A stretch of DNA of 64,000 nt from an uncultured Candidatus Saccharibacteria bacterium (lineage in GTDB: Bacteria; Patescibacteriota; Minisyncoccia; Phycocordibacterales; UBA918), in contig CAZSOS010000001.1 in NCBI GenBank assembly GCA_964608605.1, positions 117,888 to 181,887 on the forward strand, read 5' to 3'. Shown here piece by piece: positions 5,398 to 55,685 of the stretch; the first letter of the stretch is position 1; each line of letters begins with the position of its first letter. The position numbers were made by a program, and so were the translations under genes. The notes below the pieces were generated by a model. That model saw only the letters and a program-made list of their open reading frames with translations, had not been told where the DNA came from and did not search any database.

Positions 5398-5445
5398 ATC
5401 CTTTGACTTTAAGGACATAAATCAGTAATATAGCGAGGTTCAAAA

Positions 5446-5518
5446 GGGCCCTTAGCTCATTTGGTAGAGCGTCGGTTTTGCACTCCGAAGGCGAGCGGTT
5501 CGAATCCGCTAGGGTCCA
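5446..5518 (+). tRNA. tRNA-Ala (anticodon UGC)
   Basis: cloverleaf folded by hand: acceptor GGGCCCT/AGGGTCC with G3:U70 alanine identity pair, D-arm GCTC-ATTTGGTA-GAGC, anticodon loop TTTGCAC, T-arm AGCGG-TTCGAAT-CCGCT, discriminator A; no encoded CCA. Confidence 0.9.
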
Positions 5519-5526
5519 CAGCGACT

Positions 5527-5555
5527 AAAAAACGACGCCTGCGCGTCGTTTTTTT
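5527..5555. terminator. rho-independent terminator hairpin after tRNA-Ala
   Basis: AAAAAACGACGCctGCGTCGTTTTTTT. Confidence 0.7.
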
Positions 5556-5556
5556 G

Positions 5557-5640
5557 TACGCCGTGGAAGCCGGAGCGATGTTTTTGTTTGAGCGAAGCGA
5601 AAGGCAAAAACCGCGAGGCGGGGTCGCAAAATTTTTCCGT
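5557..5640. repeat. Dispersed modular intergenic repeat, copy 1
   Basis: motifs GGAAGCCGGAGCGAT, GAGCGAAGCGAAAGGCAAAAACCGCG, CCGCGAGGCGGG shared with 5694-5790 and 54500-54625. Confidence 0.6.
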
Positions 5641-5693
5641 CAGGAAAAATATTTGTGACCACAAGTAAAAACAGCCCTTGTGGGCTACTTTTC

Positions 5694-5790
5694 ATAAGCC
5701 ATGGAAGCCGGAGCGTTAGCGAACGATTCTGCATAGTGATTCGTGGCCACGAATACGAAAGGCAAAACCCGCGCCGGTAGGCGCGGGTTC
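5694..5790. repeat. Dispersed modular intergenic repeat, copy 2 (overlaps 3' end of minus-strand ORF 5716..6216)
   Basis: GGAAGCCGGAGCGTT ... CGAAAGGCAAAACCCGCG. Confidence 0.6.
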
Positions 5791-6216
5791 AAGACGCAAG
5801 GTGGCGTCCATGATCTCTTCCATGAACTCTCTCTTTCCCACGGGATTCGGTAGGAACACGCAGAAGAAACGAAATTCATTCACTGGCCGTCCGAAAGAAT
5901 TCACTTCCGGCTGACGGCAGACATGGGCGCGGCCGTCAGGCGTATCGACGTAATACTTCTTCGCTTTGTCGGTATAGTGCCATTTTGAATCATCAGGCAG
6001 CAGGACTCGCGCGCCTCCGATGCCCAGGTCTTTGAAGTCCGCGACCGGGCCGCAGTCGTTGTTCTCTTTGTCGCAGCAGCCCCAGATACCAAGTTTTTCT
6101 TGGATGGTCTGGTACCAGTGGTGGAAGTGATGATGGCCGGGAGCCACGTACTTTTCTTCGCTATTGGCGGCATAGATGCCGGCGAGCAGGAACAGAATGG
6201 CTGAAAGCGTTCGCAT
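5716..6216 (-). CDS. hypothetical secreted protein with signal peptide (166 aa)
   Basis: N-terminal MRTLSAILFLLAGIYAANS signal-like; His/Cys-containing; C-terminal 20 aa encoded by repeat copy 2 so true 3' end uncertain. Confidence 0.5.
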   Translation of the reverse strand: MRTLSAILFLLAGIYAANSEEKYVAPGHHHFHHWYQTIQEKLGIWGCCDKENNDCGPVADFKDLGIGGARVLLPDDSKWHYTDKAKKYYVDTPDGRAHVCRQPEVNSFGRPVNEFRFFCVFLPNPVGKREFMEEIMDATLRLEPAPTGAGFAFRIRGHESLCRIVR

Positions 6217-8678: not shown

Positions 8679-8821
8679 TCGTGATCAGACGGGAGTCAGG
8701 CTTCAGGCTTGGTTCCCGTCTGCTCGTGAGCAGATTATTTAATAGCACTTAGCACTTAGGTTTTAGCGGTTAGGTGTGCCAGCCAAGCTGGCACACCGTG
8801 CTAAGAACCAAGTGCTAATAA

Positions 8822-9064
<243 letters not shown>

Positions 9065-12716: not shown

Positions 12717-14132
<1,416 letters not shown>

Positions 14133-14570: not shown

Positions 14571-17500
14571 ATGCACCAAAGACGCGCCGCGTTTATCGGC
14601 GGTCTCAGTCTTTTTCTGTTAGTGTTGGCGATCTGCTTCTGCGTTGGCTTTGTTTTTTCAGCGCGTCAGACACCTGAAGAGAACGCGGTGAGTTCCGGTG
14701 TAGAAAAGGCAGAGCCGGTCTCGTTCTCTCCTTGGCGGACTCTCTTCTGCGGTCTGCGCTCGCTTGTCCTTTGGCCTTGTGCTGAACCGACTTCTCTCCC
14801 AGAACCTTCTATGCCCGCTCCAACCACTTCCATTGAGACGCGGCCGGTTCCGGCAGTCGATCTAGATGTCGCTACCACCTCTGCTTCAACCACGTCTTCT
14901 TCACCCTCCACCCAATACATAACTAACGAAACCATAGTCCGCCCCCTCGAACGCGAAATCATCCGCGAAATCACCATCCGCGACCAGGCCGTCGACACTT
15001 CCCGTTTCGTCACCCGTACTGAATATGATAGGCAAGTAGACGCGCTTCTGCGGTCCATTGAGAGTAAAGGTGGTAGTACCACTATAGTGGATCAAGGTGG
15101 CGGTGGAGGAGGTCCTGAAACCGACCCTGTCTTCATCGCTTCCGCCGCTTTTACCATTACTGGTGGTGATCTTTCTGATTGGAATCAGGCTTTTGGATGG
15201 GGTGATCACACCCAGGCTGGTTATCTAACTTCGTTCACCGAAAATGACCCACTTTTCTCCTCGTCCACCGCCGCTTCCATCACCAATACGGATGTCTCAA
15301 ATTGGAACCAATCTTTTGCTTCTTCAAGCGTGCTATCTATATCAGTGTCTGGTCTCATGGCGTCGTCGAGCGCTTGGGACCAGGCTTTTGGGTGGGGCGA
15401 CCACTCCCAAGCCGGATACCTCACTTCGTTCACCGAACTCGACCCCATCTTCAGCACCTCACCGGCCTTCGGCATCAGCGGCACCAATATCAGCAATTGG
15501 AATAGTACGTACACCACCGTCACCGCCTCCTCTTCACAGTGGGGAAGCGCGTACACCTTGGCCACTCTCTTGAACTCCGCTTCCTCCACCTGGAACCAAG
15601 CCTACTCCTGGGGCGACCACTCCACGGAGAACTACATCCAACAGAACACCGACGCCACTCTCGACAACGCCACCACCACCAACCTCACCACCAACACACT
15701 CACGCTCTCTGGAGCGCTCAAGACTGGTCTCTCAGACGGTTGCGTTGAAGTAGCTGGCGGTGTCCTCACTTCTCTGGGAGTGGCATGTGGCACTGGCGGC
15801 GGGGGACTGACAAACCTCAATGGCCTCACCTCTTCCTCGCAATCTTTCGCCACTTCCACTTCCGGCGGTCTTTCTCTTAACATCACCTCATCGGGAGGGG
15901 TACATACGTTTTCTGTGGGACTGCAGGCTGGTCGGACCCTGCCGCTTACCGCTAGTACCACTGAGTGGGCCAACATCAGGAACCTGGTCAACGCCTCCTC
16001 TTCACAATGGGGAAGCGCGTACACCTTGGCCAATCTCCTCAACAGCGCCTCCTCCACCTGGAACGCCGCCCATGCCTCCACCACCGCCCTCACGCCCTCG
16101 TACCTCCGCGGACTCTTCAATGCCGGTACCGGCCTCTCGTACGGCACCACCACTGGCACCTTCACCAACACCGGCGTCCTGTCGATCGGAGGGCTGAGCG
16201 GGAGCGTGGCGACGAGTTCGTTGGGGCTTGGTAACAATAGCTTCATCGGATTGTCCGACACCCCAGGTTCATATAACGCCGATCGCGTCTTGTTCACCAA
16301 TGCTGCCGGCAACGCTTTGACCGACTCCGCCAACTTCACCTATAACGGCAGCTCCGAGTTGCTGACGATCAGTGGCAACCTCGCCACCGGCTACGGCATC
16401 TCTTTGGGGTCTTCCGGAGGCATATATGCCAGTGAAGATATCCTGACCGCGGGCAACGGCATCAATATCATCGGTACCGAACACGCGGTTTTAAGGACCG
16501 GTAACGCTTACGTCTCTCTCACTGATGATGGAATCGATACTTTTGCCAATATTGCTGGTGATGGTGTCCAGCTCTACTCCCATTTTGATGACATCACCCT
16601 TCATTCCACTAATAACATCATTCTCACCGGCATCGGCAACGTCGGTATCGGCACCACCACGCCATCGCACAAGCTGACGGTGGCAGGAAACACTCTTATT
16701 GCTGGGAATGCCACTACTACGGGCAACCTAGTGGTGCAAGGGGCGGACATCGTGCTGGGAAACACTGGCATGGGTTACATAAGTAGTGCTTCAGGTGGAG
16801 TCTTGATCCTGGGGGGCGCCTCTAACGGTACCGGTGAAAATCTACGTTTTGATTTTGATATCAGTACTGGTCTTGATTTAGATGTGGTAACAGTAAGTTC
16901 TGGCACCGGTGCTAATCATTTGTTATTCCTCATGGGCCTGGAGACGATGGGAAATCTTAAGGTCGGCGGCAATATCACCGATGCTACCTGGCAGGGAAAT
17001 GATATCGACATCTCCGACTACACCAACCTCGGCGTCACCGCCACTGGTCTTTCTCTTTCTGGAGATAACATCGCTCTGACTGCTGGCTATTCCATACCAC
17101 TCACCTCTTCCACCTCAGAATGGACCACAGCGTATTCCTGGGGCGACCACGCCACGCAAGGCTACTTGACCGGCCTCGGCACTTCCACCTTCAACGGCAA
17201 CATTTCGATGGCCGGACATATCATTCCGGCGGCCGACATCACCTACGATCTCGGTTCACCCACTAGCATGTGGCGGGACGTCTACATCGGTCCGGGTTCT
17301 CTCTATATCAATGGCAAGAAGGTGTTGGAGGACGTGTCGGATACCATTACGTTGCGTACCGATCACAACCAGAATCTCGCGGTGCAGACCAGCGGTATCG
17401 GCAGTATTCATGTCAATGCTTCATCCACCGGCGGCATCACCATGGAGTCCATCTCAGGTAATATCAACATCACCTCCGCCTCTGGCAACCTCAACATCGG

Positions 17501-20500
17501 CACCACCGGCAGCGGTCAGCTCAACCTCGGCACCATTAACCAAGGCGTCTGGCACGGCACCGACGTCGACATCTCCGACTACACCAACCTCACCGTCTCT
17601 GCCACCGGCCTCACTTTGAACAACGACGCCATAGAGCTTGCTTCCGGCTATGCTATTCCACTCACCGCCAGCACCACTGAATGGATGAGCGCTCGCACTG
17701 ACGTGCTCGCGCTCACGGCCTCCTCCACCCTTTGGGATTCTTTCTACAACACCCCTTCATCCCGCCTCACCGCCGGCACCGGTCTCTACTGGAGCGGCAA
17801 TACTCTAAACGCTTCGTCGTCGGCTGACATCAACTACTGGACGTTGTCGGGAGGCAATGTTTATAGGGCTTCCGGCAATGTGGGTATCGGGACTTCCACT
17901 CCCGCTGCTAAGCTGGATGTTCAAGGTAGCTGGTTGCGTCTCCTTAATCCAAGTGGGGGATCGAGCATAACCTCGCAAAGCGTAGGAGGGGAGGCTATTT
18001 TCGCGGCGCGCAATTCGGCCAACGCTTGGACCTCCGGTGTAAACACCAGCGGACAGTATTTTATCTACGACGAGACCAATGCCAGCATACCTTTCCGTAT
18101 CTATCCTAGTTCTGCGAACAGTGTCATGTCAATCAATGGTAGTAATGTTGGTATCGGCACTACGACTCCGAACTCTAAGCTTCACCTAGCCGATGGATAC
18201 ATGCTTGTAACGCGCTCAGAGACCGCTAGTCAACCTAACTTTTATCAAGCCTTGAACTCCAGCGGCAGCGGCTTCGGTCTTAGATATACCGAGGATGCTA
18301 TCGGAAACATCCCGGCAGATGCCTGGCAGTTCAGATTATCCGGAACCAACGTCAGCCCGCTCATCTTCTCAACTTTCGACTCGACTCCGATCCTGACCAT
18401 GGCGACTTCCGGCAATATTGGCATTGGTACTACGACGCCTAACGCGGCGTTGGACATCAGTTCCACAGCTACGGGGGCTGTCACGGCAGCCTTCTTTAGA
18501 TCGAACCCAGGTGGTGCTGGGGCGGCGAATCAAAATACGATTGTGCTCGATAACCTGCAGGGTTCCGCTAACTTCAAAAATTCCATCCGACTCGCCAGTA
18601 ACGGGGCTTTGAAGTGGTCATTCGGAAATGATTACTACGGCGCTGGAGAGCAGAATTTCTTCATACATGACGCGGTATCCAACGCGGCGCGTCTCTTGAT
18701 AGATCCGGACGGCAACGTCGGTATCGGGACCACCAGTCCAAACAGTATCTTGAATATCAACACCGGCCTCTCCGGTTTTATGGGCCTTCCCGCACACGGC
18801 AGTGTAGGCTTCGGTAATTTCAGTTCTGGTAATACGGCACCTAGCATGATGGCCCGCTCGGATAATTCGACGGCCCTCCGTCTAATTAGCTTAGCAAGCA
18901 ATAGCAACACTGACGCCGACATGAACTTCGATGTCCGTGAGAACGACAACACCGACTTCGCCACCTTGACCAGTCAAGCGTTCAGCTTCAGCCGTTTTGG
19001 CAATAGCCTACTCACTATCCTACGCAGCGGCAACGTTGGCATCGGTACCTCGACGCCCAGTGCGAAGCTTAGTGTACAAGGCACCATTCGGGCAGAGAGT
19101 GTCTCATCCATTAGTACAGGGTCTGGCGTTGAAATCAACTACAACACCGGCACCGGACTCGGTAAGATCCAAGCCTATGATCGAGACGCAAGTACTTTTA
19201 AGGACTTGTGGCTAGATGGCTCTACGCTCACTCTCGCTACTGGCGGTGCTTCTCGCGTGACCATCCTTCCTTCTTCAGGAAATGTCGGTATAGGAACCAC
19301 TACTCCTCAAGCTACACTTCATCTCGGCACTTACGGCGCCACCCTCCGCCTCAATAGCCCAATAACTGGTTCTGGCATATACGGATACAATGACGCTAGT
19401 GGCGGTTTAGCTTACTCCTTCACGCGTCAATCCAACGACCTTCATATCACCGGCGCGACCGGCATCGGGTTCCAGTCTAACGCAGGTTCAGGCATAAATA
19501 CTGCTAGCACCTCGATGTATATCTCTTCCGCCGGCAACGTGGGCATCGGCACTACAACCCCAGCGAGCAGATTAAGCGTGTTTTCAACTGACAGCGTTAT
19601 CGCGGAATTCACCGCTTCGTCATCGGCAGCTACTCGAATGAAGCTAAATACCACAGGTTCCAATAAAAACGTGGGACTTAGTCTGGCAATAGACGGCATT
19701 ACTCGATGGACCAACGCCGCCTATCTCCCGAACGGGACTAACTATGACTACACGATATGGAATGACGCACTTAATAGTCCAGCCCTCCTCATTGACGGTG
19801 ACACGAACAACATCGGTATCGGCACCCTTAGTCCTGCATACAAACTCCATCTGGCCTCCGGCACGACGACGTTGGCCATGGTACCGTGGCAATCGGATGA
19901 TCTGGTAATACAAGGAGGTCTGGCAGAACAGAACGGCATCTCCATAGTCAACGGCTCCAATAAATACCTCACCTTCGTTGATGACAACATCGGCATCGGC
20001 CAGATCGGCTATTACTGGAACGGCAACATGAACTTCCTCACCGACGGCACGGAGCGAATGGTTATTAATGCCACCGGCAACGTCGGCATCGGGACCACAT
20101 CACCACTTACGAAACTCGACGTGAAGGGCTCGATCTTGATCGATCAAGGATCGAACGGACGTCTCATATTCAATAATTATACTTCTTTGTCAGATCATGG
20201 ACCATATATCGGCTACTCTACAGGTAACAATTCCATGGACATCGTGTCCGGAATGAACCCCAATGCCAATGGCGTTGGCACGGGTGGTATCCGCTTCGGT
20301 CGAGCCAGCGGTTCGTCGTGGGCCACGACCATGGTCATCGACGGCTCCGGATTGGTCGGTATAGGTACCTCAACACCTACACACAGTCTCACCGTAGGCG
20401 CGGTCAATTCGACCGTTGATCGGATTATCCGGGTCGTATCGCAAAATAACGTTGGCCTTATCCTTGAAGCCGATACGGATAATCTTACCGAGACACATAA

Positions 20501-21470
20501 CCCGTACGTGAAGATGTCGCAAGACGGTGGGGCGGTGGCTAGTATCATGGGTATGACCGGTGGTGCCAACATCGATCCTGAGGGTAATACCTTCACCGGC
20601 GGACACGATAATGCCCTGGTCTTGATCAACCAGTATGCCGGTTCAATACAGTTGGGTACTAACGGAGCTCCCCGGCTCTCTATCGTTTCTTCGGGTAATG
20701 TCGGCATCGGCGCCTTGTCTCCCTCCGCCCAACTCCACACCACCGGCACCGTCCGTTTCGCCAATTTCGGCGCCGGCACCCTCCAGACCGACGCCTCCGG
20801 CAACCTCTCAGTCTCCTCAGACACCCGTCTTAAAGACCTCGAAGGTACCTTCGACCGCGGACTCGAAGCCATCTTAGGCATAGAACCCATCATGTACCGC
20901 TGGAACGCCGCTTCCGGCTACGACCGTTCTACTCTATACGCCGGCTTCTCCGCCCAGAACGTGGAAGACTTCATCCCCGAAGCCGTGGGTACCAACCCTG
21001 ACGGTTTCCTCTCGTTGTCTGATAGACCGCTCCTGGCGGCGGTGATCAACGCGGTGAAGGAGATATACGGCCAATTGACGACTTTGTCCGATAAGATCGC
21101 TGGCTTTGCCGACAGCTTTATGTCCGCCAGCATCACCGCCACCGACAGGATCTGCGTGGGAGACACATGCGTTACCGAAGGTGAGTTGAAGGCCGTGTTG
21201 GATATGGTCGGTAGCAATGGTGGAGGCTCTAACGATGGAAATGGCAGCTGGGGCGGATCTTCCGGCGGCGGCGACACCACGACCGGTACTTCGACCGCCT
21301 CCACCACGCCGCCGGTTACCTCGACCTCGACACCGCCCGCCACTCCCGTATTAGGCTGTATGGACCCTCTGGCTTCGAACTTTGCTCCCGCGGCCACGGA
21401 GGATGATGGTTCGTGCGTATTTCCGCCCGCGCCGCCGGACGAGTCGGCCACCACCACTCCGGCGGAGTGA
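14571..21470 (+). CDS. giant secreted/surface repeat protein (2299 aa): N-terminal TM/signal, Pro/Thr-rich linker, tandem repeat modules, ~12 GNVGIGTTTP-type repeats, C-terminal phage tailspike-like intramolecular chaperone (peptidase S74-like) domain and Cys motif tail
   Basis: uninterrupted ORF; internal repeats visible at protein level; SSDTRLKDLEG...IMYRWNAASGYDRSTLYAGFSAQNVEDFIPEAV motif near C-terminus. Confidence 0.85.
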   Translation: MHQRRAAFIGGLSLFLLVLAICFCVGFVFSARQTPEENAVSSGVEKAEPVSFSPWRTLFCGLRSLVLWPCAEPTSLPEPSMPAPTTSIETRPVPAVDLDVATTSASTTSSSPSTQYITNETIVRPLEREIIREITIRDQAVDTSRFVTRTEYDRQVDALLRSIESKGGSTTIVDQGGGGGGPETDPVFIASAAFTITGGDLSDWNQAFGWGDHTQAGYLTSFTENDPLFSSSTAASITNTDVSNWNQSFASSSVLSISVSGLMASSSAWDQAFGWGDHSQAGYLTSFTELDPIFSTSPAFGISGTNISNWNSTYTTVTASSSQWGSAYTLATLLNSASSTWNQAYSWGDHSTENYIQQNTDATLDNATTTNLTTNTLTLSGALKTGLSDGCVEVAGGVLTSLGVACGTGGGGLTNLNGLTSSSQSFATSTSGGLSLNITSSGGVHTFSVGLQAGRTLPLTASTTEWANIRNLVNASSSQWGSAYTLANLLNSASSTWNAAHASTTALTPSYLRGLFNAGTGLSYGTTTGTFTNTGVLSIGGLSGSVATSSLGLGNNSFIGLSDTPGSYNADRVLFTNAAGNALTDSANFTYNGSSELLTISGNLATGYGISLGSSGGIYASEDILTAGNGINIIGTEHAVLRTGNAYVSLTDDGIDTFANIAGDGVQLYSHFDDITLHSTNNIILTGIGNVGIGTTTPSHKLTVAGNTLIAGNATTTGNLVVQGADIVLGNTGMGYISSASGGVLILGGASNGTGENLRFDFDISTGLDLDVVTVSSGTGANHLLFLMGLETMGNLKVGGNITDATWQGNDIDISDYTNLGVTATGLSLSGDNIALTAGYSIPLTSSTSEWTTAYSWGDHATQGYLTGLGTSTFNGNISMAGHIIPAADITYDLGSPTSMWRDVYIGPGSLYINGKKVLEDVSDTITLRTDHNQNLAVQTSGIGSIHVNASSTGGITMESISGNINITSASGNLNIGTTGSGQLNLGTINQGVWHGTDVDISDYTNLTVSATGLTLNNDAIELASGYAIPLTASTTEWMSARTDVLALTASSTLWDSFYNTPSSRLTAGTGLYWSGNTLNASSSADINYWTLSGGNVYRASGNVGIGTSTPAAKLDVQGSWLRLLNPSGGSSITSQSVGGEAIFAARNSANAWTSGVNTSGQYFIYDETNASIPFRIYPSSANSVMSINGSNVGIGTTTPNSKLHLADGYMLVTRSETASQPNFYQALNSSGSGFGLRYTEDAIGNIPADAWQFRLSGTNVSPLIFSTFDSTPILTMATSGNIGIGTTTPNAALDISSTATGAVTAAFFRSNPGGAGAANQNTIVLDNLQGSANFKNSIRLASNGALKWSFGNDYYGAGEQNFFIHDAVSNAARLLIDPDGNVGIGTTSPNSILNINTGLSGFMGLPAHGSVGFGNFSSGNTAPSMMARSDNSTALRLISLASNSNTDADMNFDVRENDNTDFATLTSQAFSFSRFGNSLLTILRSGNVGIGTSTPSAKLSVQGTIRAESVSSISTGSGVEINYNTGTGLGKIQAYDRDASTFKDLWLDGSTLTLATGGASRVTILPSSGNVGIGTTTPQATLHLGTYGATLRLNSPITGSGIYGYNDASGGLAYSFTRQSNDLHITGATGIGFQSNAGSGINTASTSMYISSAGNVGIGTTTPASRLSVFSTDSVIAEFTASSSAATRMKLNTTGSNKNVGLSLAIDGITRWTNAAYLPNGTNYDYTIWNDALNSPALLIDGDTNNIGIGTLSPAYKLHLASGTTTLAMVPWQSDDLVIQGGLAEQNGISIVNGSNKYLTFVDDNIGIGQIGYYWNGNMNFLTDGTERMVINATGNVGIGTTSPLTKLDVKGSILIDQGSNGRLIFNNYTSLSDHGPYIGYSTGNNSMDIVSGMNPNANGVGTGGIRFGRASGSSWATTMVIDGSGLVGIGTSTPTHSLTVGAVNSTVDRIIRVVSQNNVGLILEADTDNLTETHNPYVKMSQDGGAVASIMGMTGGANIDPEGNTFTGGHDNALVLINQYAGSIQLGTNGAPRLSIVSSGNVGIGALSPSAQLHTTGTVRFANFGAGTLQTDASGNLSVSSDTRLKDLEGTFDRGLEAILGIEPIMYRWNAASGYDRSTLYAGFSAQNVEDFIPEAVGTNPDGFLSLSDRPLLAAVINAVKEIYGQLTTLSDKIAGFADSFMSASITATDRICVGDTCVTEGELKAVLDMVGSNGGGSNDGNGSWGGSSGGGDTTTGTSTASTTPPVTSTSTPPATPVLGCMDPLASNFAPAATEDDGSCVFPPAPPDESATTTPAE

Positions 21471-54055: not shown

Positions 54056-54466
54056 ATGTCAGCCACTACTAAAGAGCGATACAACGAAGGCATTGGCCGC
54101 CGCAAGACCGCGAGCGCTCGCGTTCGTCTGACTCCGGCGAAGTCGACCACCGTCACGGTGAACGATAAGAAGCTCGAGGACTACTTCAAGCATCAGGCGC
54201 AGATCAATCGCGTCATGGCGGTGCTTTCCACCAAGGAACTCGGCCTTGGAGATTACACCATCACCGTCCAGGTATCGGGTTCTGGTCTTTCCGCCCAGGC
54301 TGACGCGGTGAAGCTTGGTATCGCCCGCGCACTTTTGAAGGAGAGTGGTGAACGCCGCGGCACCCTGAAGAAGGAAGGTTTCCTTAAGCGCGACTCCCGC
54401 GCCGTGGAGCGCAAGAAGTTCGGCTTGCGGAAAGCCCGCCGCGCGCCACAGTGGTCAAAGCGTTAA
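54056..54466 (+). CDS. rpsI: 30S ribosomal protein S9
   Basis: GRRKTASARVRL ... KFGLRKARRAPQWSKR. Confidence 0.9.
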   Translation: MSATTKERYNEGIGRRKTASARVRLTPAKSTTVTVNDKKLEDYFKHQAQINRVMAVLSTKELGLGDYTITVQVSGSGLSAQADAVKLGIARALLKESGERRGTLKKEGFLKRDSRAVERKKFGLRKARRAPQWSKR

Positions 54467-54467
54467 G

Positions 54468-54494
54468 AAAAGAGCTCCGTTTGGAGCTCTTTTT
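54468..54494. terminator. rho-independent terminator after rpsI
   Basis: AAAAGAGCTCCgtttGGAGCTCTTTTT. Confidence 0.8.
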
Positions 54495-54499
54495 AGCTT

Positions 54500-54625
54500 T
54501 GACGGCCGGAGCGTTGTGATTTTGCGGCTAATTCCTGCCGCAAAATCACCGCGAGGCGGGCCTGCGAGCGCTTAGTAGAATTGGAACGAAGCGAACAATT
54601 ATACTTAGCGACTCGATGGGGAAAC
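54500..54625. repeat. Dispersed modular intergenic repeat, copy 3, with 13-bp stem hairpin
   Basis: GCCGGAGCGTT, GTGATTTTGCGGCtaattcctGCCGCAAAATCAC, CCGCGAGGCGGG, GAACGAAGCGAA shared with 5557-5790. Confidence 0.55.
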
Positions 54626-54633
54626 GCTAGAAG

Positions 54634-54658
54634 ATAAAAGCCCCAAAGGGGCTTTTAT
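54634..54658. terminator. bidirectional terminator
   Basis: AAAAGCCCCaaaGGGGCTTTT. Confidence 0.75.
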
Positions 54659-54677: not shown

Positions 54678-55076
54678 CTACACCAAATTAAAGAAAGTCG
54701 GTATAACCCTGATTATTCGAGTTCCTATGTCGACCTCTATCACGTTCTTTCTTTTATCTATACTTGAGATCTTGCCGGTAATCTTACCATCAGTGACCCT
54801 GTCACCAACCTTTAGCATCTTGGCTTCCAACAGCTGCGCCCGCTCCAACGTCTCCTTCTTTATTCTTTTGCGGACTTCAACAGCTGACAGCTGCCGCTTC
54901 TCGTCCTTTTCTTTATAAAGTCTCCCGTAGTTCGTCCCTATGTTCAGGACAGTGCCGGCGACCTTCAAATGACGTTTGATGCGCTTAAGATCCCTAGAGA
55001 CCATCAGATCCTCCTCAAGGTTCAATTCAAAGGATAAAATACCACGTTTGTTATTTTTGACAACAACGTTCTTCAC
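54678..55076 (-). CDS. hypothetical basic protein (132 aa), GTG start
   Basis: ORF; KOW-like GDRVTDGKITGKI segment; start very close to palindromic TTATAA -10 so true start uncertain. Confidence 0.4.
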   Translation of the reverse strand: MKNVVVKNNKRGILSFELNLEEDLMVSRDLKRIKRHLKVAGTVLNIGTNYGRLYKEKDEKRQLSAVEVRKRIKKETLERAQLLEAKMLKVGDRVTDGKITGKISSIDKRKNVIEVDIGTRIIRVIPTFFNLV

Positions 55077-55079
55077 CGT

Positions 55080-55085
55080 TATAAT
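55080..55085 (+). promoter_or_regulatory. -10 box TATAAT 9 nt upstream of grpE ATG; palindromic TTATAA core also reads as -10 for divergent minus-strand gene
   Basis: cgTTATAATgcgggagttATG. Confidence 0.4.
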
Positions 55086-55643: not shown

Positions 55644-55685
55644 CAAACTTACTAAGAGCTAATTGCTAATAACTAAGAGCTATCT

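Follow-up and report, generated by a model that had tools for sequence, protein, structure and literature searches.

A widespread, apparently undescribed folded RNA-like element behind tRNA, tmRNA and housekeeping genes of Patescibacteria

Several described systems place short or folded sequences next to tRNA genes or at the ends of other genes. REP/BIME elements are palindromes of 20-40 nt with a conserved 5′ tetranucleotide and a RAYT transposase in the genome. Islands bounded by attL and attR as well as CIMEs carry a direct repeat of the 3′ part of a tRNA gene, beginning in the T-loop or at the 3′ end, whereby the tRNA stays intact and tmRNA genes are used, too; C56 of the T-loop and the last nucleotide of the tRNA are the classic integrase sublocations in tRNA and tmRNA genes. 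The attC sites of integrons and the attP hairpin of the CTX phage are folded single-strand recombination sites, and class C group II introns insert after intrinsic terminators. On the RNA level, 3′ETS-leuZ of E. coli is a tRNA-linked non-coding RNA released by tRNA processing. The dicistronic tRNA-snoRNA genes of plants, which appear among the references of PMC12045711, belong to the same kind. For Patescibacteria, tRNA group I introns have been described at position 35/36 in the anticodon loop, and group II introns were not detected (PMC13011429).

In this study, we analyzed repeats in a window of 64,000 nt, i.e. the whole stretch of DNA under investigation, and searched for their relatives. 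The initial annotation had reported two partial direct repeats behind a tRNA-Ala and a third copy after rpsI. These repeats are three copies of one element, with copies 1 and 3 intact and copy 2 a decayed tandem copy, and the shared sequence blocks are the conserved base of a three-way junction. The element is widespread, strongly conserved and, apparently, an undescribed folded RNA-like element of the ultrasmall CPR/Patescibacteria. Its motif GCCGGAGCGWT is present exactly at 5569, 5707 and 54505, always intergenic and on the plus strand; three occurrences were observed versus 0.12 expected, and 0 of 100 shuffles reached three, which rules out the chance similarity that shuffling statistics might have revealed. 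Further, CCGCGAGGCGGG is found exactly at 5611 and 54549, GAAAGGCAAAAMCCGCG at 5599 and 5757 (0.05 expected), while CGAAGCGAA is common to copies 1 and 3 at different positions of the fold, namely the apex of P2 in the former and that of P3 in the latter. Read along the strand of the upstream gene, a unit is arranged in the order X_up, hairpin A, 5′ arm X′, three-way-junction core and X_down. Thereby, X_up comprises the last 9-26 nt of the upstream tRNA, tmRNA or coding sequence, X′ is antisense to the last 9-20 nt of the upstream gene, and X_down is a direct copy of the upstream end (4-26 nt). The following features were assigned in the window:

Unit extents: unit 1, ~5515-5664; unit 2, ~5667-5790; unit 3, ~54454-54634
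5515-5523, plus strand: X_up of unit 1, TCCACAGCG, made up of the final 5 nt of the tRNA and a 4-nt piece of trailer
5527-5555, plus strand: hairpin A of unit 1, A6-CGACGC-CUGC-GCGTCG-T7
5559-5567, plus strand: 5′ arm X′ of unit 1, CGCCGTGGA, antisense to X_up (covariance-model alignment; arm analysis)
5569-5659, plus strand: core of copy 1, with P2 5569-5619, junction GGG 5620-5622 and P3 5623-5659
5659-5665, plus strand: X_down of unit 1, CCACAAG, which briefly repeats the 3′ end of the tRNA in direct orientation (repeat CCACA) and is also the start of unit 2
5667-5692, plus strand: hairpin A′ of unit 2, AAAAACAGCCC-TTGT-GGGCTACTTTT, terminator-like in appearance
5699-5767, plus strand: degenerate copy 2, with 5′ arm and P2 5′ strand kept (GGAAGCCGGAGCGTT, 5703-5717) and the remainder rearranged or deleted
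5716-6216, minus strand: convergent ORF of 166 aa with a signal-peptide-like N-terminus
5768-5790, no strand assigned: terminator-like hairpin CCCGCGCC-GGTA-GGCGCGGG belonging to the convergent ORF; its orthologue in the relative L122 stands separately behind an intact copy 2
54454-54466, plus strand: X_up of unit 3, the final rpsI codons and stop, GTCAAAGCGTTAA, complementary to 54495-54503
54467-54494, plus strand: hairpin A/T1 of unit 3, GAAAAGAGCTCC-GTTT-GGAGCTCTTTTT
54495-54503, plus strand: 5′ arm X′ of unit 3, AGCTTTGAC, antisense to the rpsI end, with alternative pairing to 54622-54628
54505-54619, plus strand: core of copy 3, with P2 54505-54557 including a 13-bp hairpin, junction GGG 54558-54560 and a long P3 54561-54619
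54620-54634, plus strand: X_down of unit 3, GGAAACGCTAGAAGA, which repeats the end of rpsI in direct orientation and has decayed
54636-54658, no strand assigned: hairpin T2, AAAAGCCCC-AAA-GGGGCTTTTAT, which closes unit 3

The upstream partner gene of unit 1 is the tRNA-Ala(TGC) already recognized in the initial annotation, which was confirmed at 5446-5519 on the plus strand (ARAGORN; Rfam RF00005, 64.4 bits) and is preceded by a promoter-like TTGACT-17-TAATAT (5403-5431). X_up of this unit is complementary to the 5′ arm at 8/9 positions. The hairpin at 5527-5555 with its CUGC loop had been taken for the terminator of tRNA-Ala and proved to be a conserved part of the unit; in the L122 orthologue the CUGC is kept and the stem is changed in a compensatory way. 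In P1, GUG 5563-5565 pairs with 5660-5662, and P2 reads GCC-GGA-GCG-AU-(7-bp hairpin)-CGC-GA-GGC. Copy 1 was matched at 5559-5667 (65.1 bits, E = 2e-11; MFE z-score −4.3) by R1, a covariance model built in this analysis from a seed alignment. The GTGAC-CACAAG junction of unit 1 is also found in L122 and L117.

The direct repeats reported behind tRNA-Ala are real (GCCGGAGCGWT at 5569 and 5707), but the units are longer than had been given, copy 2 is decayed, and the homology of the second shared block is doubtful because the hairpin at 5768-5790 corresponds in L122 to the terminator of the convergent gene and not to a P2 3′ strand. With R1, copy 2 reached 8.8 bits (E about 7); it has a z-score of −2.9 and lacks the family fold, and it shares 46% identity with the intact copy at this position in L122 (GCCGAAGCGAT...CGCAAGGCGGG plus P3). 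A terminator-like site listed by the scan (5673-5686) lies within hairpin A′. That copy 2 supplies C-terminal codons of ORF 5716-6216 holds true, since about 25 final codons are antisense to it. This ORF, for which no Pfam match was found, carries a 40-aa C-terminal extension; the conserved core of its family ends with ...FLPNPxx, where four of seven homologues stop, lacking the extension. Inside the extension, the hairpin at 5768-5790 is translated as PAPTGAG, and homologue P0002 has a similar extension with PAPLGAG. Decayed copies lead to spurious ORF extensions such as that of ORF 5716-6216.

After rpsI, the third copy was recovered together with its 13-bp hairpin (GCCGGAGCGWT at 54505; stem GTGATTTTGCGGC/GCCGCAAAATCAC, 54516-54549), here as part of a longer unit. 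Copy 3 covers 54495-54634, and R1 matched 54495-54594 (34.4 bits, E = 4e-5) with the long P3 handled as an insertion; the MFE z-score is −5.25, with P2 and P3 formed. The same type of P3 is found at L083, L129 and L140. Hairpins equivalent to A/T1, many with a CUGC loop, are present at the rpsI loci L013, L070, L133, L134, L138, L140 and L160, and counterparts of X_down at rpsI are GCAAGCGATAGA (L013, L032), GTAAACGATAA (L070, L177) and AAAGCGATAGAA (L138). The convergent ORF 54678-55076 probably makes use of hairpin T2 as well. Minus-strand ORFs come next at both window loci, and no promoter was found inside the unit at either of them.

Beyond the three copies of the window, R1 detected 109 copies in 88 loci or sources of Patescibacteria and Elusimicrobia-labelled origin, and a pattern scan found at least 120 loci; the dispersed non-coding repeat family postulated at the outset is therefore far larger than guessed. 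Copy density amounts to three in the 64 kb of the window and up to three per 8-kb locus. The element is short, non-coding, multicopy and dispersed, as are MITEs and small dispersed repeats. The fold, the antisense arm, the membership of the 'terminator' in the unit and the decay of copy 2 had been missed.

The core is a three-way junction of 100-130 nt (whole unit roughly 150-200 nt) consisting of a variable stem P1 plus P2 and P3. The invariant base of P2, GCC-GGA-GCG ... CGC-GA-GGC, is followed by the GGG junction and then by P3, GUCGCG...UGUGAC with conserved G.U pairs, whose 3′ end abuts the first nucleotide of X_down without a linker. Junction strands measure 1-3, 3 and 0 nt. J1/2 lacks conservation; junction-proximal nucleotides are invariant among the 109 matches, i.e. 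conserved as strongly as in small ribozymes. In the seed alignment, 90.7% of the pair cells are paired versus 67.4% in shuffles, and the covariation score is 0.602 versus 0.196 (slid controls at most 0.142). Among the 109 R1 matches, pairing is 91.1% versus 65.0% in shuffles, and both partners have changed in 33 of 37 pairs. Which strand is folded is fixed by conserved G.U pairs, among them one in P3 that is G.U in 101 of 105 sequences. Different genomes carry identical P2/P3 'alleles' behind different tRNAs, some copies have UUCG-type loops, and tandem arrays and partial copies are present in the family. Diverged subfamilies are marked by GUC-GCA-GAC and by GGCGGAG.

Position and orientation of the element are constrained as well. 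A same-strand tRNA or tmRNA gene lies at most 260 nt upstream of 84 of the 109 copies; other upstream genes are rpsI, rpsR, ftsZ and topA. An element on the same strand follows 77 tRNAs, one on the opposite strand only 3, and 16 elements are located directly upstream of a co-oriented tRNA. Copies are also found between co-oriented tRNAs. At L012, the element ends about 20-30 nt ahead of the next tRNA, and its hairpin A has no U tract. Family-wide, a U tract is often absent from hairpin A and the CUGC loop conserved, 47 of the 90 hairpins ahead of family cores having this tetraloop; the window hairpins A show U tracts by eye, and the terminator scan lists only 5673-5686. Downstream genes are unrelated and often convergent. 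Among the 25 families reported for the 144 nearest flanking ORFs, which include TopA, SmpB and IF-2, there was no integrase, transposase (Y1 transposase included) or RT. Every copy is near its repeat partner, and none is far away.

The arms are locus-specific. About 25 copies carry an exact direct repeat of 17-26 nt starting from C56 of the T-loop and others one of 4-10 nt from the last nucleotide of the tRNA, the left boundary being fixed and the right one variable; tmRNA genes likewise provide cases of the direct repeat. Two arm types can be distinguished, type A (T-loop) and type B (tRNA end plus trailer), the latter being the arm logic of unit 1 and of L017, L058, L062 and L076. In 28 copies, the 5′ strand of P1, extended by 2 nt, complements tRNA positions 54-62 perfectly (9/9), and the P1 arm tracks T-loop variants (0 of 20,000 permutations matched the observed value). 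At rpsI loci, X′ follows synonymous codon differences, with an exact complement averaging 9.7 nt in matched loci versus 5.6 nt across loci (again 0 of 20,000 permutations). P1 arms vary by locus and covary with the neighboring gene. In the rpsI-linked arms, TTGAC is the complement of the codons GTC AAA. Since X′ can pair with X_up or with X_down, two mutually exclusive helices are available. The exact repeats of 17-26 nt are present even without a complement to the acceptor part and run into the non-functional trailer, which speaks for insertion or duplication as their origin and against selection for pairing.

Some further ideas on the arms were discarded. An acceptor-stem mimic (P0) is not a constant feature, as only about a third of the type A copies have it, and the CUGC loop showed no association with GCAG in the P2 loop that would point to a kissing interaction of the two (Fisher p = 0.48). 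At tRNA-Ala loci, the arm has an A opposite U70 (perfect complement) where the tRNA has G3, and it also pairs with the discriminator and the trailer; this G3.U70 test and the pairing to the trailer refute a degenerate tandem tRNA duplicate. Hairpin A weakly resembles a D-arm.

Gene order and sequence comparison speak for considerable age. The order rpoA-rplQ-rplM-rpsI-element-grpE-dnaK is common to the window, L013 and L070, and its rpsI-element-grpE-dnaK portion also to L032, at an RpsI identity of only 52-61% across these loci. At rpsI the element is patchy and absent in 6 of 20 inspected relatives. The core of copy 1 is 95.6% identical between the window and L122, compared with 66-73% for the flanking genes, and three of four changes interconvert Watson-Crick and G.U pairs; the copy 1 orthologue is under strong purifying selection. 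The best explanation is an ancient, multicopy module, structured at the RNA level, in Patescibacteria and some Elusimicrobia-labelled MAGs.

In Rfam 15, only tRNA passes the gathering threshold in the window, so the covariance-model check suggested in the initial annotation revealed no other family. When both window loci and the exemplars L037 and L099 were scanned by E-value, only sub-threshold noise appeared, and the best ribozyme match was Pistol at 5651-5685 with 14.7 bits against a threshold of 34.5. The units are not called as tRNA or tmRNA by ARAGORN and contain no acceptor copy of G3, which excludes a tRNA, a tmRNA or a tRNA pseudogene; group I and II introns were dismissed by the size of about 120 nt and the absence of an Rfam match. 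TIGR-Tas arrays, with 36-nt units bound by Nop-domain proteins, are unrelated, and REP/BIME does not apply to a three-way junction with no Y1 transposase among the families of the flanking ORFs. A full-text literature search found no description of the element, and a preprint from 2026 that deals with intergenic features is silent on tRNA. The two-block pattern was found in no viral contig. The 17-mer CGCGAGGCGGGGTCGCG is present in five, which were regarded as chance matches because none fits the covariance model or has a tRNA; likewise, pattern matches in GC-rich non-CPR genomes (Streptomyces, Alphaproteobacteria and others) lack a convincing P3 and flanking context and were attributed to chance.

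Three identities had been suggested for the repeats. Best supported is a small RNA, for which strand-specific covariation, conserved G.U pairs, the orientation behind transcribed genes and the location between co-oriented tRNAs argue. A MITE-like element fits loosely: copies are multiple, sometimes tandem, and flanked by direct repeats, but constant terminal inverted repeats are absent, as P1 arms differ between loci, and repeats of 4-26 nt are not a fixed short target-site duplication. Of the att-site scar, the direct repeat of the tRNA or tmRNA 3′ part from the T-loop remains, as in att sites and CIMEs; the element is not the scar of a larger island, because the repeat-flanked segment measures only 150-250 nt, no integrase is among the families reported for the 144 nearest ORFs, and no larger parent element was seen.

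We tentatively favor a co-transcribed RNA module with partner-swapping arms. The unit would be transcribed as trailer or spacer of a strongly expressed upstream gene, and X′ would at first reach back over hairpin A and zip up with the 3′ end upstream of it. As soon as X_down is made, X′ could swap its partner and close P1, thereby freeing the upstream RNA and yielding a compact, nuclease-resistant three-way-junction RNA, which, we infer, is released by tRNA-processing nucleases or RNase III. The invariant P2/P3 base, the tandem G.A loop and the conserved G.U pairs might form a platform for a presumed protein partner, and the module may mark the point where stable-RNA and housekeeping transcripts end at their 3′ side and insulate this boundary. 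The family would originally have spread by duplicative insertion copying the 3′ end of the target, and single copies such as copy 2 would decay freely. In units 1 and 3 and many others, a hairpin resembling a strong intrinsic terminator separates the upstream gene from the core, so that core transcription may be rare in many units. Moreover, tandem arrays, partial copies and the patchy presence at rpsI look like selfish repeat behavior, and G.T pairs and compensatory changes would also persist in a folded single-stranded DNA site.

These points bear on the main rival, a non-autonomous mobile DNA element, which we consider unlikely, though worth serious attention. Its folded top strand would be a recombination or insertion substrate (attC- or CTX attP-like) or a mini CIME-like element inserting at the T-loops or 3′ ends of tRNAs and at gene ends; the insertion would have left X_up and X_down as att-like or target duplications, and after excision as a single-stranded circle X and X′ would pair into a single stem, with hairpin A closing one end and P2/P3 the other. 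Such an element accounts well for repeats of 17-26 nt starting at C56 or the last tRNA nucleotide with variable right ends, for tmRNA genes among the targets, for tandem, partial and patchy copies and for the same P2/P3 'alleles' behind different tRNAs, and the order X, hairpin, X′, core, X would fit a one-strand exchange between folded circle and target. It is harder to reconcile with the absence of integrase, transposase and RT from the families reported for 144 flanking ORFs, with the lack of a convincing copy in viral contigs, with locus-specific arms, owing to which an incoming element would need new programming for each target, with positions orthologous across deep lineages, with the wobble-neutral changes in a 95.6% identical orthologous core, and with copies inside co-oriented tRNA clusters. 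Rather improbable, and bolder, is an RNA-guided entity without protein genes, whose 5′ arm would recognize the 3′ end of a stable RNA or of its gene (for type A the near-universal T-loop, for type B the tRNA end plus trailer) and whose core would catalyze or recruit capture of this end by ligation, template switching or strand exchange, so that antisense and direct copies arise together; tRNA genes throughout the Candidate Phyla Radiation would then have been colonized by RNAs of a new class that propagate or process themselves and may be circular.

A self-processing or RNA-mobile element is improbable, too. There, the core would be a new ribozyme or an RT/ligase handle, the X repeats would mark the ends of units cut to unit length from a read-through transcript and possibly circularized, and a tRNA 3′ fragment captured on X′ would make new copies. 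The two identical X sites flanking each unit, either of which can pair with X′, the P3 end abutting the first nucleotide of X_down, the small-ribozyme-like conservation next to the junction and the multimeric arrays would suit it, yet no Rfam ribozyme family matches, J1/2 is not conserved, cleavage at X_up would destroy the tRNA, and no RT was found nearby. We regard as quite improbable a cis-regulatory switch (attenuator or insulator) in which X′ pairing decides on read-through into downstream genes: mutually exclusive helices and hairpins on both sides of the core are what it would use, but the downstream genes are unrelated and often convergent (minus-strand ORFs at both window loci), no junction conserved like a ligand pocket is seen, and the terminator-like hairpin precedes the switchable arm. 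An att-site scar left beside a tRNA by a larger, now decayed island is hardly credible, and so is chance similarity; the direct repeat of the tRNA 3′ end and the visible decay of copy 2 would agree with this reading, but not 109 structured copies with covariation, the shuffling statistics, a uniform segment of 150-250 nt and copies behind rpsI, rpsR, ftsZ and topA.

If RNA, the element would be among the most widespread uncharacterized bacterial RNAs, directly tied to tRNA, tmRNA and ribosomal-protein transcripts in organisms with little-known RNA processing; if mobile, it would be a gene-less element copying the 3′ end of its target in both orientations, for which we know of no mechanism. Patescibacteria keep many unit copies, yet their genomes are below 1 Mb, and normally only rRNA or tRNA reaches the degree of conservation that the core shows. 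For annotation, recognizing 'terminators' after tRNAs as parts of the unit is an improvement, and R1 can be used as a lineage marker.

Compared with known systems, the element resembles class C group II introns in lying, co-oriented, directly 3′ of hairpins that look like terminators of housekeeping genes, but has only ~120 nt, no intron domains and no RT. Like 5S rRNA-like and xrRNA-like three-way junctions, it has ~100-130 nt, a terminal stem, two arms and G.A-rich internal loops; it differs by junction strands of only 1-3, 3 and 0 nt and has no Rfam match to 5S or others. With integron attC and CTX attP it has in common a strand-specific fold, a structure that partly outlasts sequence and one stem arm coming from flank or target, whereas its core is highly conserved and without R and L boxes, and copies lie within tRNA operons. 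As in attL/attR islands and CIMEs, there is a direct repeat of the tRNA 3′ part, use of tmRNA and an intact tRNA; in contrast, the flanked segment comprises only 150-250 nt with no integrase seen nearby, and it contains an internal antisense copy of the repeat, RNA-type covariation and sites at protein genes. Like tRNA-snoRNA genes and 3′ETS-leuZ, the element lies directly behind the tRNA and might rely on the promoter of the tRNA and on RNase P/Z cleavage for its expression, but it is multicopy with one conserved core and arms mirroring the tRNA end, and also occurs behind mRNAs. Finally, with REP/BIME, ERIC/IRU, Correia, RUP and MITE-like elements it shares being short, gene-less, multicopy and located at gene 3′ ends, as well as hairpin formation, presumed transcription with the neighbors, and copies that decay and are absorbed into ORFs. 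Unlike these repeats, it has locus-specific arms, a flanking repeat of 4-26 nt that copies the upstream gene end, a three-way-junction core conserved across the superphylum, a fixed orientation and a strong association with tRNA and tmRNA genes.

The window has a single tRNA gene, tRNA-Ala(TGC) at 5446-5519, and the direct repeats reported in the initial annotation are present and real. GCCGGAGCGWT occurs exactly at 5569, 5707 and 54505, every time on the plus strand, against 0.12 matches expected; none of 100 shuffles gave three, which rules out chance similarity. CCGCGAGGCGGG was found exactly at 5611 and 54549, and GAAAGGCAAAAMCCGCG at 5599 and 5757 (0.05 expected). In copies 1 and 3, both conserved blocks border a hairpin of unrelated sequence, of 7 bp and 13 bp, respectively; the latter, at 54516-54549, is the 13-bp stem described before. 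The two blocks also pair with each other, as GCC-GGA-GCG-WU-(hairpin)-CGC-GA-GGC. The window was scored with filters off using R1, the covariance model built here.

Copies of the element in the window (R1 score; MFE z-score)
5559-5667, plus strand: copy 1; 65.1 bits, E 2e-11; z-score -4.3
5697-5797, plus strand: copy 2; 8.8 bits, E about 7; z-score -2.9
54495-54594, plus strand: copy 3, with a long P3 extending to 54619; 34.4 bits, E 4e-5; z-score -5.25

Further repeats were seen in the window. A near-perfect palindrome of ~60 nt (TTATACCAGTCTGACTAGTATAA / ATACTAGTCAGACTGGTATAA; family D15) forms a second dispersed repeat at 2307-2367 and 13023-13077, ~10.7 kb apart. The 31-nt repeat CTAAGARCYAAKTGCTAATAACTAARAGCTA (family D19; 87% identical) lies at 8801-8831 behind atpB and at 55652-55682, stopping 3 nt short of the dnaK start codon; it may be a leader or operator common to both. 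From about 15300 to 21400, a very large repetitive coding region carries a motif encoding ~GN(V/I)GIGT every 250-320 nt and longer internal repeats of 84-91 nt (families D1-D8, D11, D13, D14).

For other genomes, the pattern GCCGGAGCGWT-N(10-40)-CGCGAGGCGGG was scanned in one genome per species and matched at least 120 loci. Among the matches listed, the majority were Patescibacteria (Saccharibacteria, Paceibacterota, Kaiser-, Yanofsky-, Nomura-, Adler-, Giovannoni-, Lloyd-, Falkow-, Taylor-, Moranbacteria and Minisyncoccia) and a few were MAGs labelled Elusimicrobia; the remaining matches, in GC-rich genomes and without the flanking context, were rejected as chance. Typical copies behind bacterial-type tRNAs were also seen in MAGs with non-CPR labels (L107, Nanoarchaeia; L009 and L066, Gammaproteobacteria; L021, Bdellovibrionales). 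These labels are probably binning or labelling errors; the host range may also be wider than CPR. Genuine members have a third helix, GUCGCG...YGUGAC, after the motif and a stem of variable sequence closing the whole. The three-way junction was written down from the seed alignment A2, comprising 33 members of similar length.

Features of the three-way junction besides the conserved P2 blocks
P1: 7 bp of variable sequence, followed by a 1-3 nt linker and P2
Junction from P2 to P3: GGG
P3 apical module: two G.A pairs, a 2-bp stem and a tetraloop

In A2, standard pairs fill 90.7% of pair cells (67.4% shuffled), with a covariation score of 0.602 compared to 0.196 shuffled and at most 0.142 for slid partners. 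The R1 search yielded 109 copies from 88 sources, in whose alignment 91.1% of cells are paired (65.0% shuffled) and 33 of 37 pairs show two-sided changes, among them the 'invariant' base pairs of P2. Within P3, one pair is a G.U wobble in 101/105 sequences. Since such wobbles would read as A.C mismatches on the opposite strand, the fold belongs to the strand carrying GCCGGAGCG. Diverged rpsI-linked subfamilies (L129, L125, L126, L134, L138) have a compensatorily swapped P2 base (GUC-GCA-GAC...GUC-UA-GAC, as in L129, even at an 'invariant' position; GGCGGAG...). Neither R1 nor the search pattern detects them. The figure of 109 thus under-counts the family, which is wider than the pattern captures and patchy in its presence.

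The strand-specific fold follows transcribed genes for stable RNAs and housekeeping functions, with its orientation fixed. A same-strand tRNA or tmRNA ends at most 260 nt upstream of 84 of the 109 copies, and 77 of the 139 tRNA/tmRNA genes in family loci have a same-strand element just downstream, compared to 3 with an opposite-strand one. Almost all tRNA identities occur as upstream partner, and 16 elements are closely followed by a tRNA gene of the same orientation, which places them within tRNA clusters. About 8 of the remaining 25 copies are at the locus edge with the upstream gene outside the sequence; others follow rpsI (four, including window copy 3), rpsR, ftsZ or a ~750-aa protein (four), identified by Pfam as topoisomerase I. 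The 144 ORFs closest to the elements encode ordinary housekeeping functions, e.g. TopA, SmpB and IF-2. No convincing copy was found in 2.9 million viral contigs.

Each element carries a locus-specific antisense arm (X') and sense arm (X_down). X_down, immediately 3' of P3, repeats the 3' end of the upstream gene (X_up) in direct orientation, and X' is the antisense counterpart of those nucleotides. In ~25 tRNA-linked copies X_down is exact over 17-26 nt, starting exactly from C56 of the T-loop and often reaching several nt into the trailer; the other class copies 4-10 nt from the last tRNA nucleotides (CCACA in window unit 1). In type A (28 copies), the P1 5' strand and the first two 'junction' nucleotides are a 9/9 complement of tRNA positions 54-62 and track T-loop variants, GGACTCGAA occurring with TTCGAGTCC and AGATTTGAA with TTCAAATCT; the observed complementarity was not reached in any of 20000 permutations. 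Type B arms run antisense to the tRNA's final ~5 nt together with ~4 nt of trailer, as in window unit 1 (CGCCGTGGA at 5559-5567 against TCCACAGCG at 5515-5523, 8/9 complementary). A derivation of the arm from the tRNA's own 5' strand was rejected: at tRNA-Ala loci it places an A across from U70, the partner of which is G3 in the tRNA, and it also pairs to the discriminator and trailer. Only about one third of type A copies have an extra complement to the acceptor part; hairpin A, the hairpin between X_up and X', separates it from the remaining arm. The direct repeat is complete even in copies without this complement and therefore seems to have arisen by a copying mechanism, not through selection for pairing alone.

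Of the hairpins preceding the core, 47/90 have a CUGC and 7/90 a CUUC tetraloop; downstream of the core, CUGC occurs in just 6/43. The structure at 5527-5555 (A6-CGACGC-CUGC-GCGTCG-T7), previously read as the tRNA-Ala terminator, is the hairpin A module. Its orthologue in L122, a relative with the window's gene order, has a compensatory stem change and keeps the loop. Stem and loop at 5533-5548 are identical to those behind rpsI in L134, which suggests that modules may be exchanged between units.

The order rpoA-rplQ-rplM-rpsI-element-grpE-dnaK is common to the window, L013 (Kaiserbacteria) and L070 (Paceibacterota), and its part from rpsI onwards to the truncated locus L032 (Kaiserbacteria); RpsI identity across the four is just 52-61%. 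X' varies with the synonymous codons that each species uses for the final three residues (S-K-R-stop).

X' at rpsI loci and its complement at the rpsI end
Window: X' AGCTTTGAC; complement GTCAAAGC
L070: X' TATCTCTTTGAC; complement GTCGAAGAGATA
L032: X' CGTTTGCTC; complement GAGCAAACG

Among 15 rpsI-linked loci, matched pairs have a longest exact complement of 9.7 nt on average, versus 5.6 nt across loci (0/20000 permutations). X_down is here a decayed copy of an rpsI end, (G)YAAACGATAGA. R1 detected the element in just 4/80 metagenome rpsI loci. By eye, 11 of 20 inspected loci contained a recognisable homologue, 3 a different small structured insert with the same arm logic, and 6 a terminator followed by the grpE promoter and nothing else. 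The close relatives L123 (1890-2040), L127 and L128 have smaller structured inserts 3' of rpsI whose initial arm is complementary to the last rpsI codons, in L127 as two tandem copies. A perfect sigma-70 consensus promoter (TTGACA-17-TATAAT) at 55057-55085, directly upstream of grpE, overlaps the start of the minus-strand ORF 54678-55076.

Copy 1 is under strong purifying selection. Its core is 95.6% identical between the window and L122 (87/91), where neighbouring genes are 66-73% identical at the DNA level; three of the four changes swap Watson-Crick and G.U pairs, and one is in a bulge. Individual copies decay. Copy 2 is intact in L122 (GCCGAAGCGAT...CGCAAGGCGGG and a long P3), followed by a separate hairpin, CCCGCGCC-GAGC-GGCGCGGG; in the window it lacks the P2 hairpin, the P2 3' strand and most of P3, and the hairpin at 5768-5790 is the counterpart of L122's separate terminator. 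The convergent minus-strand ORF 5716-6216 is translated through this hairpin. Copy 2 had been said to supply its last ~20 codons, and the overlap is real: the final ~25 codons of a 40-aa extension run antisense to copy 2. The protein family ends in ...FLPNPxx in 4/7 homologues; it looks secreted, has conserved HH..H and CC..C motifs and gave no Pfam match. In the window lineage and the homologue P0002, the ORF runs through its own terminator-like hairpin, giving an extension of 26-40 aa absent from other homologues.

We tentatively favour a transcribed trailer or spacer RNA module with a partner-swapping X' and a protein-binding P2/P3 base. The unit would be transcribed as trailer or spacer of the upstream gene, and X' would pair back across hairpin A onto the upstream 3' end. 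Once X_down is made, X' could switch to it and close P1, freeing the upstream RNA and leaving a compact RNA whose invariant P2/P3 base may bind a putative protein. The main rival, a non-autonomous mobile element with the folded DNA strand as substrate, accounts for the att-like boundaries of the repeats as well as for the tandem arrays and the patchy presence, and the order X-hairpin-X'-core-X would be the outcome of integrating a small folded circle. However, the families reported for the 144 closest ORFs include no integrase, transposase or reverse transcriptase, and we consider mobility rather unlikely. That the element is a ribozyme or circular RNA seems improbable, and that it is a switch regulating downstream genes still more so. 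A scar or chance origin of the repeats is excluded.

A covariance search of the window loci, as had been proposed for these repeats, and of the exemplar loci L037 and L099 gave no matching family in Rfam 15, and no published description was found in the full-text literature, a coverage outside which much subscription literature lies. Small dispersed repeats and integrase att sites bear some likeness to the element, and tRNA-linked small RNAs have other features in common with it, but it fails the tests that define each of them. We rate it as a structured dispersed intergenic element, unusual in that the 3' end of the upstream gene recurs within every copy in both inverted and direct orientation.
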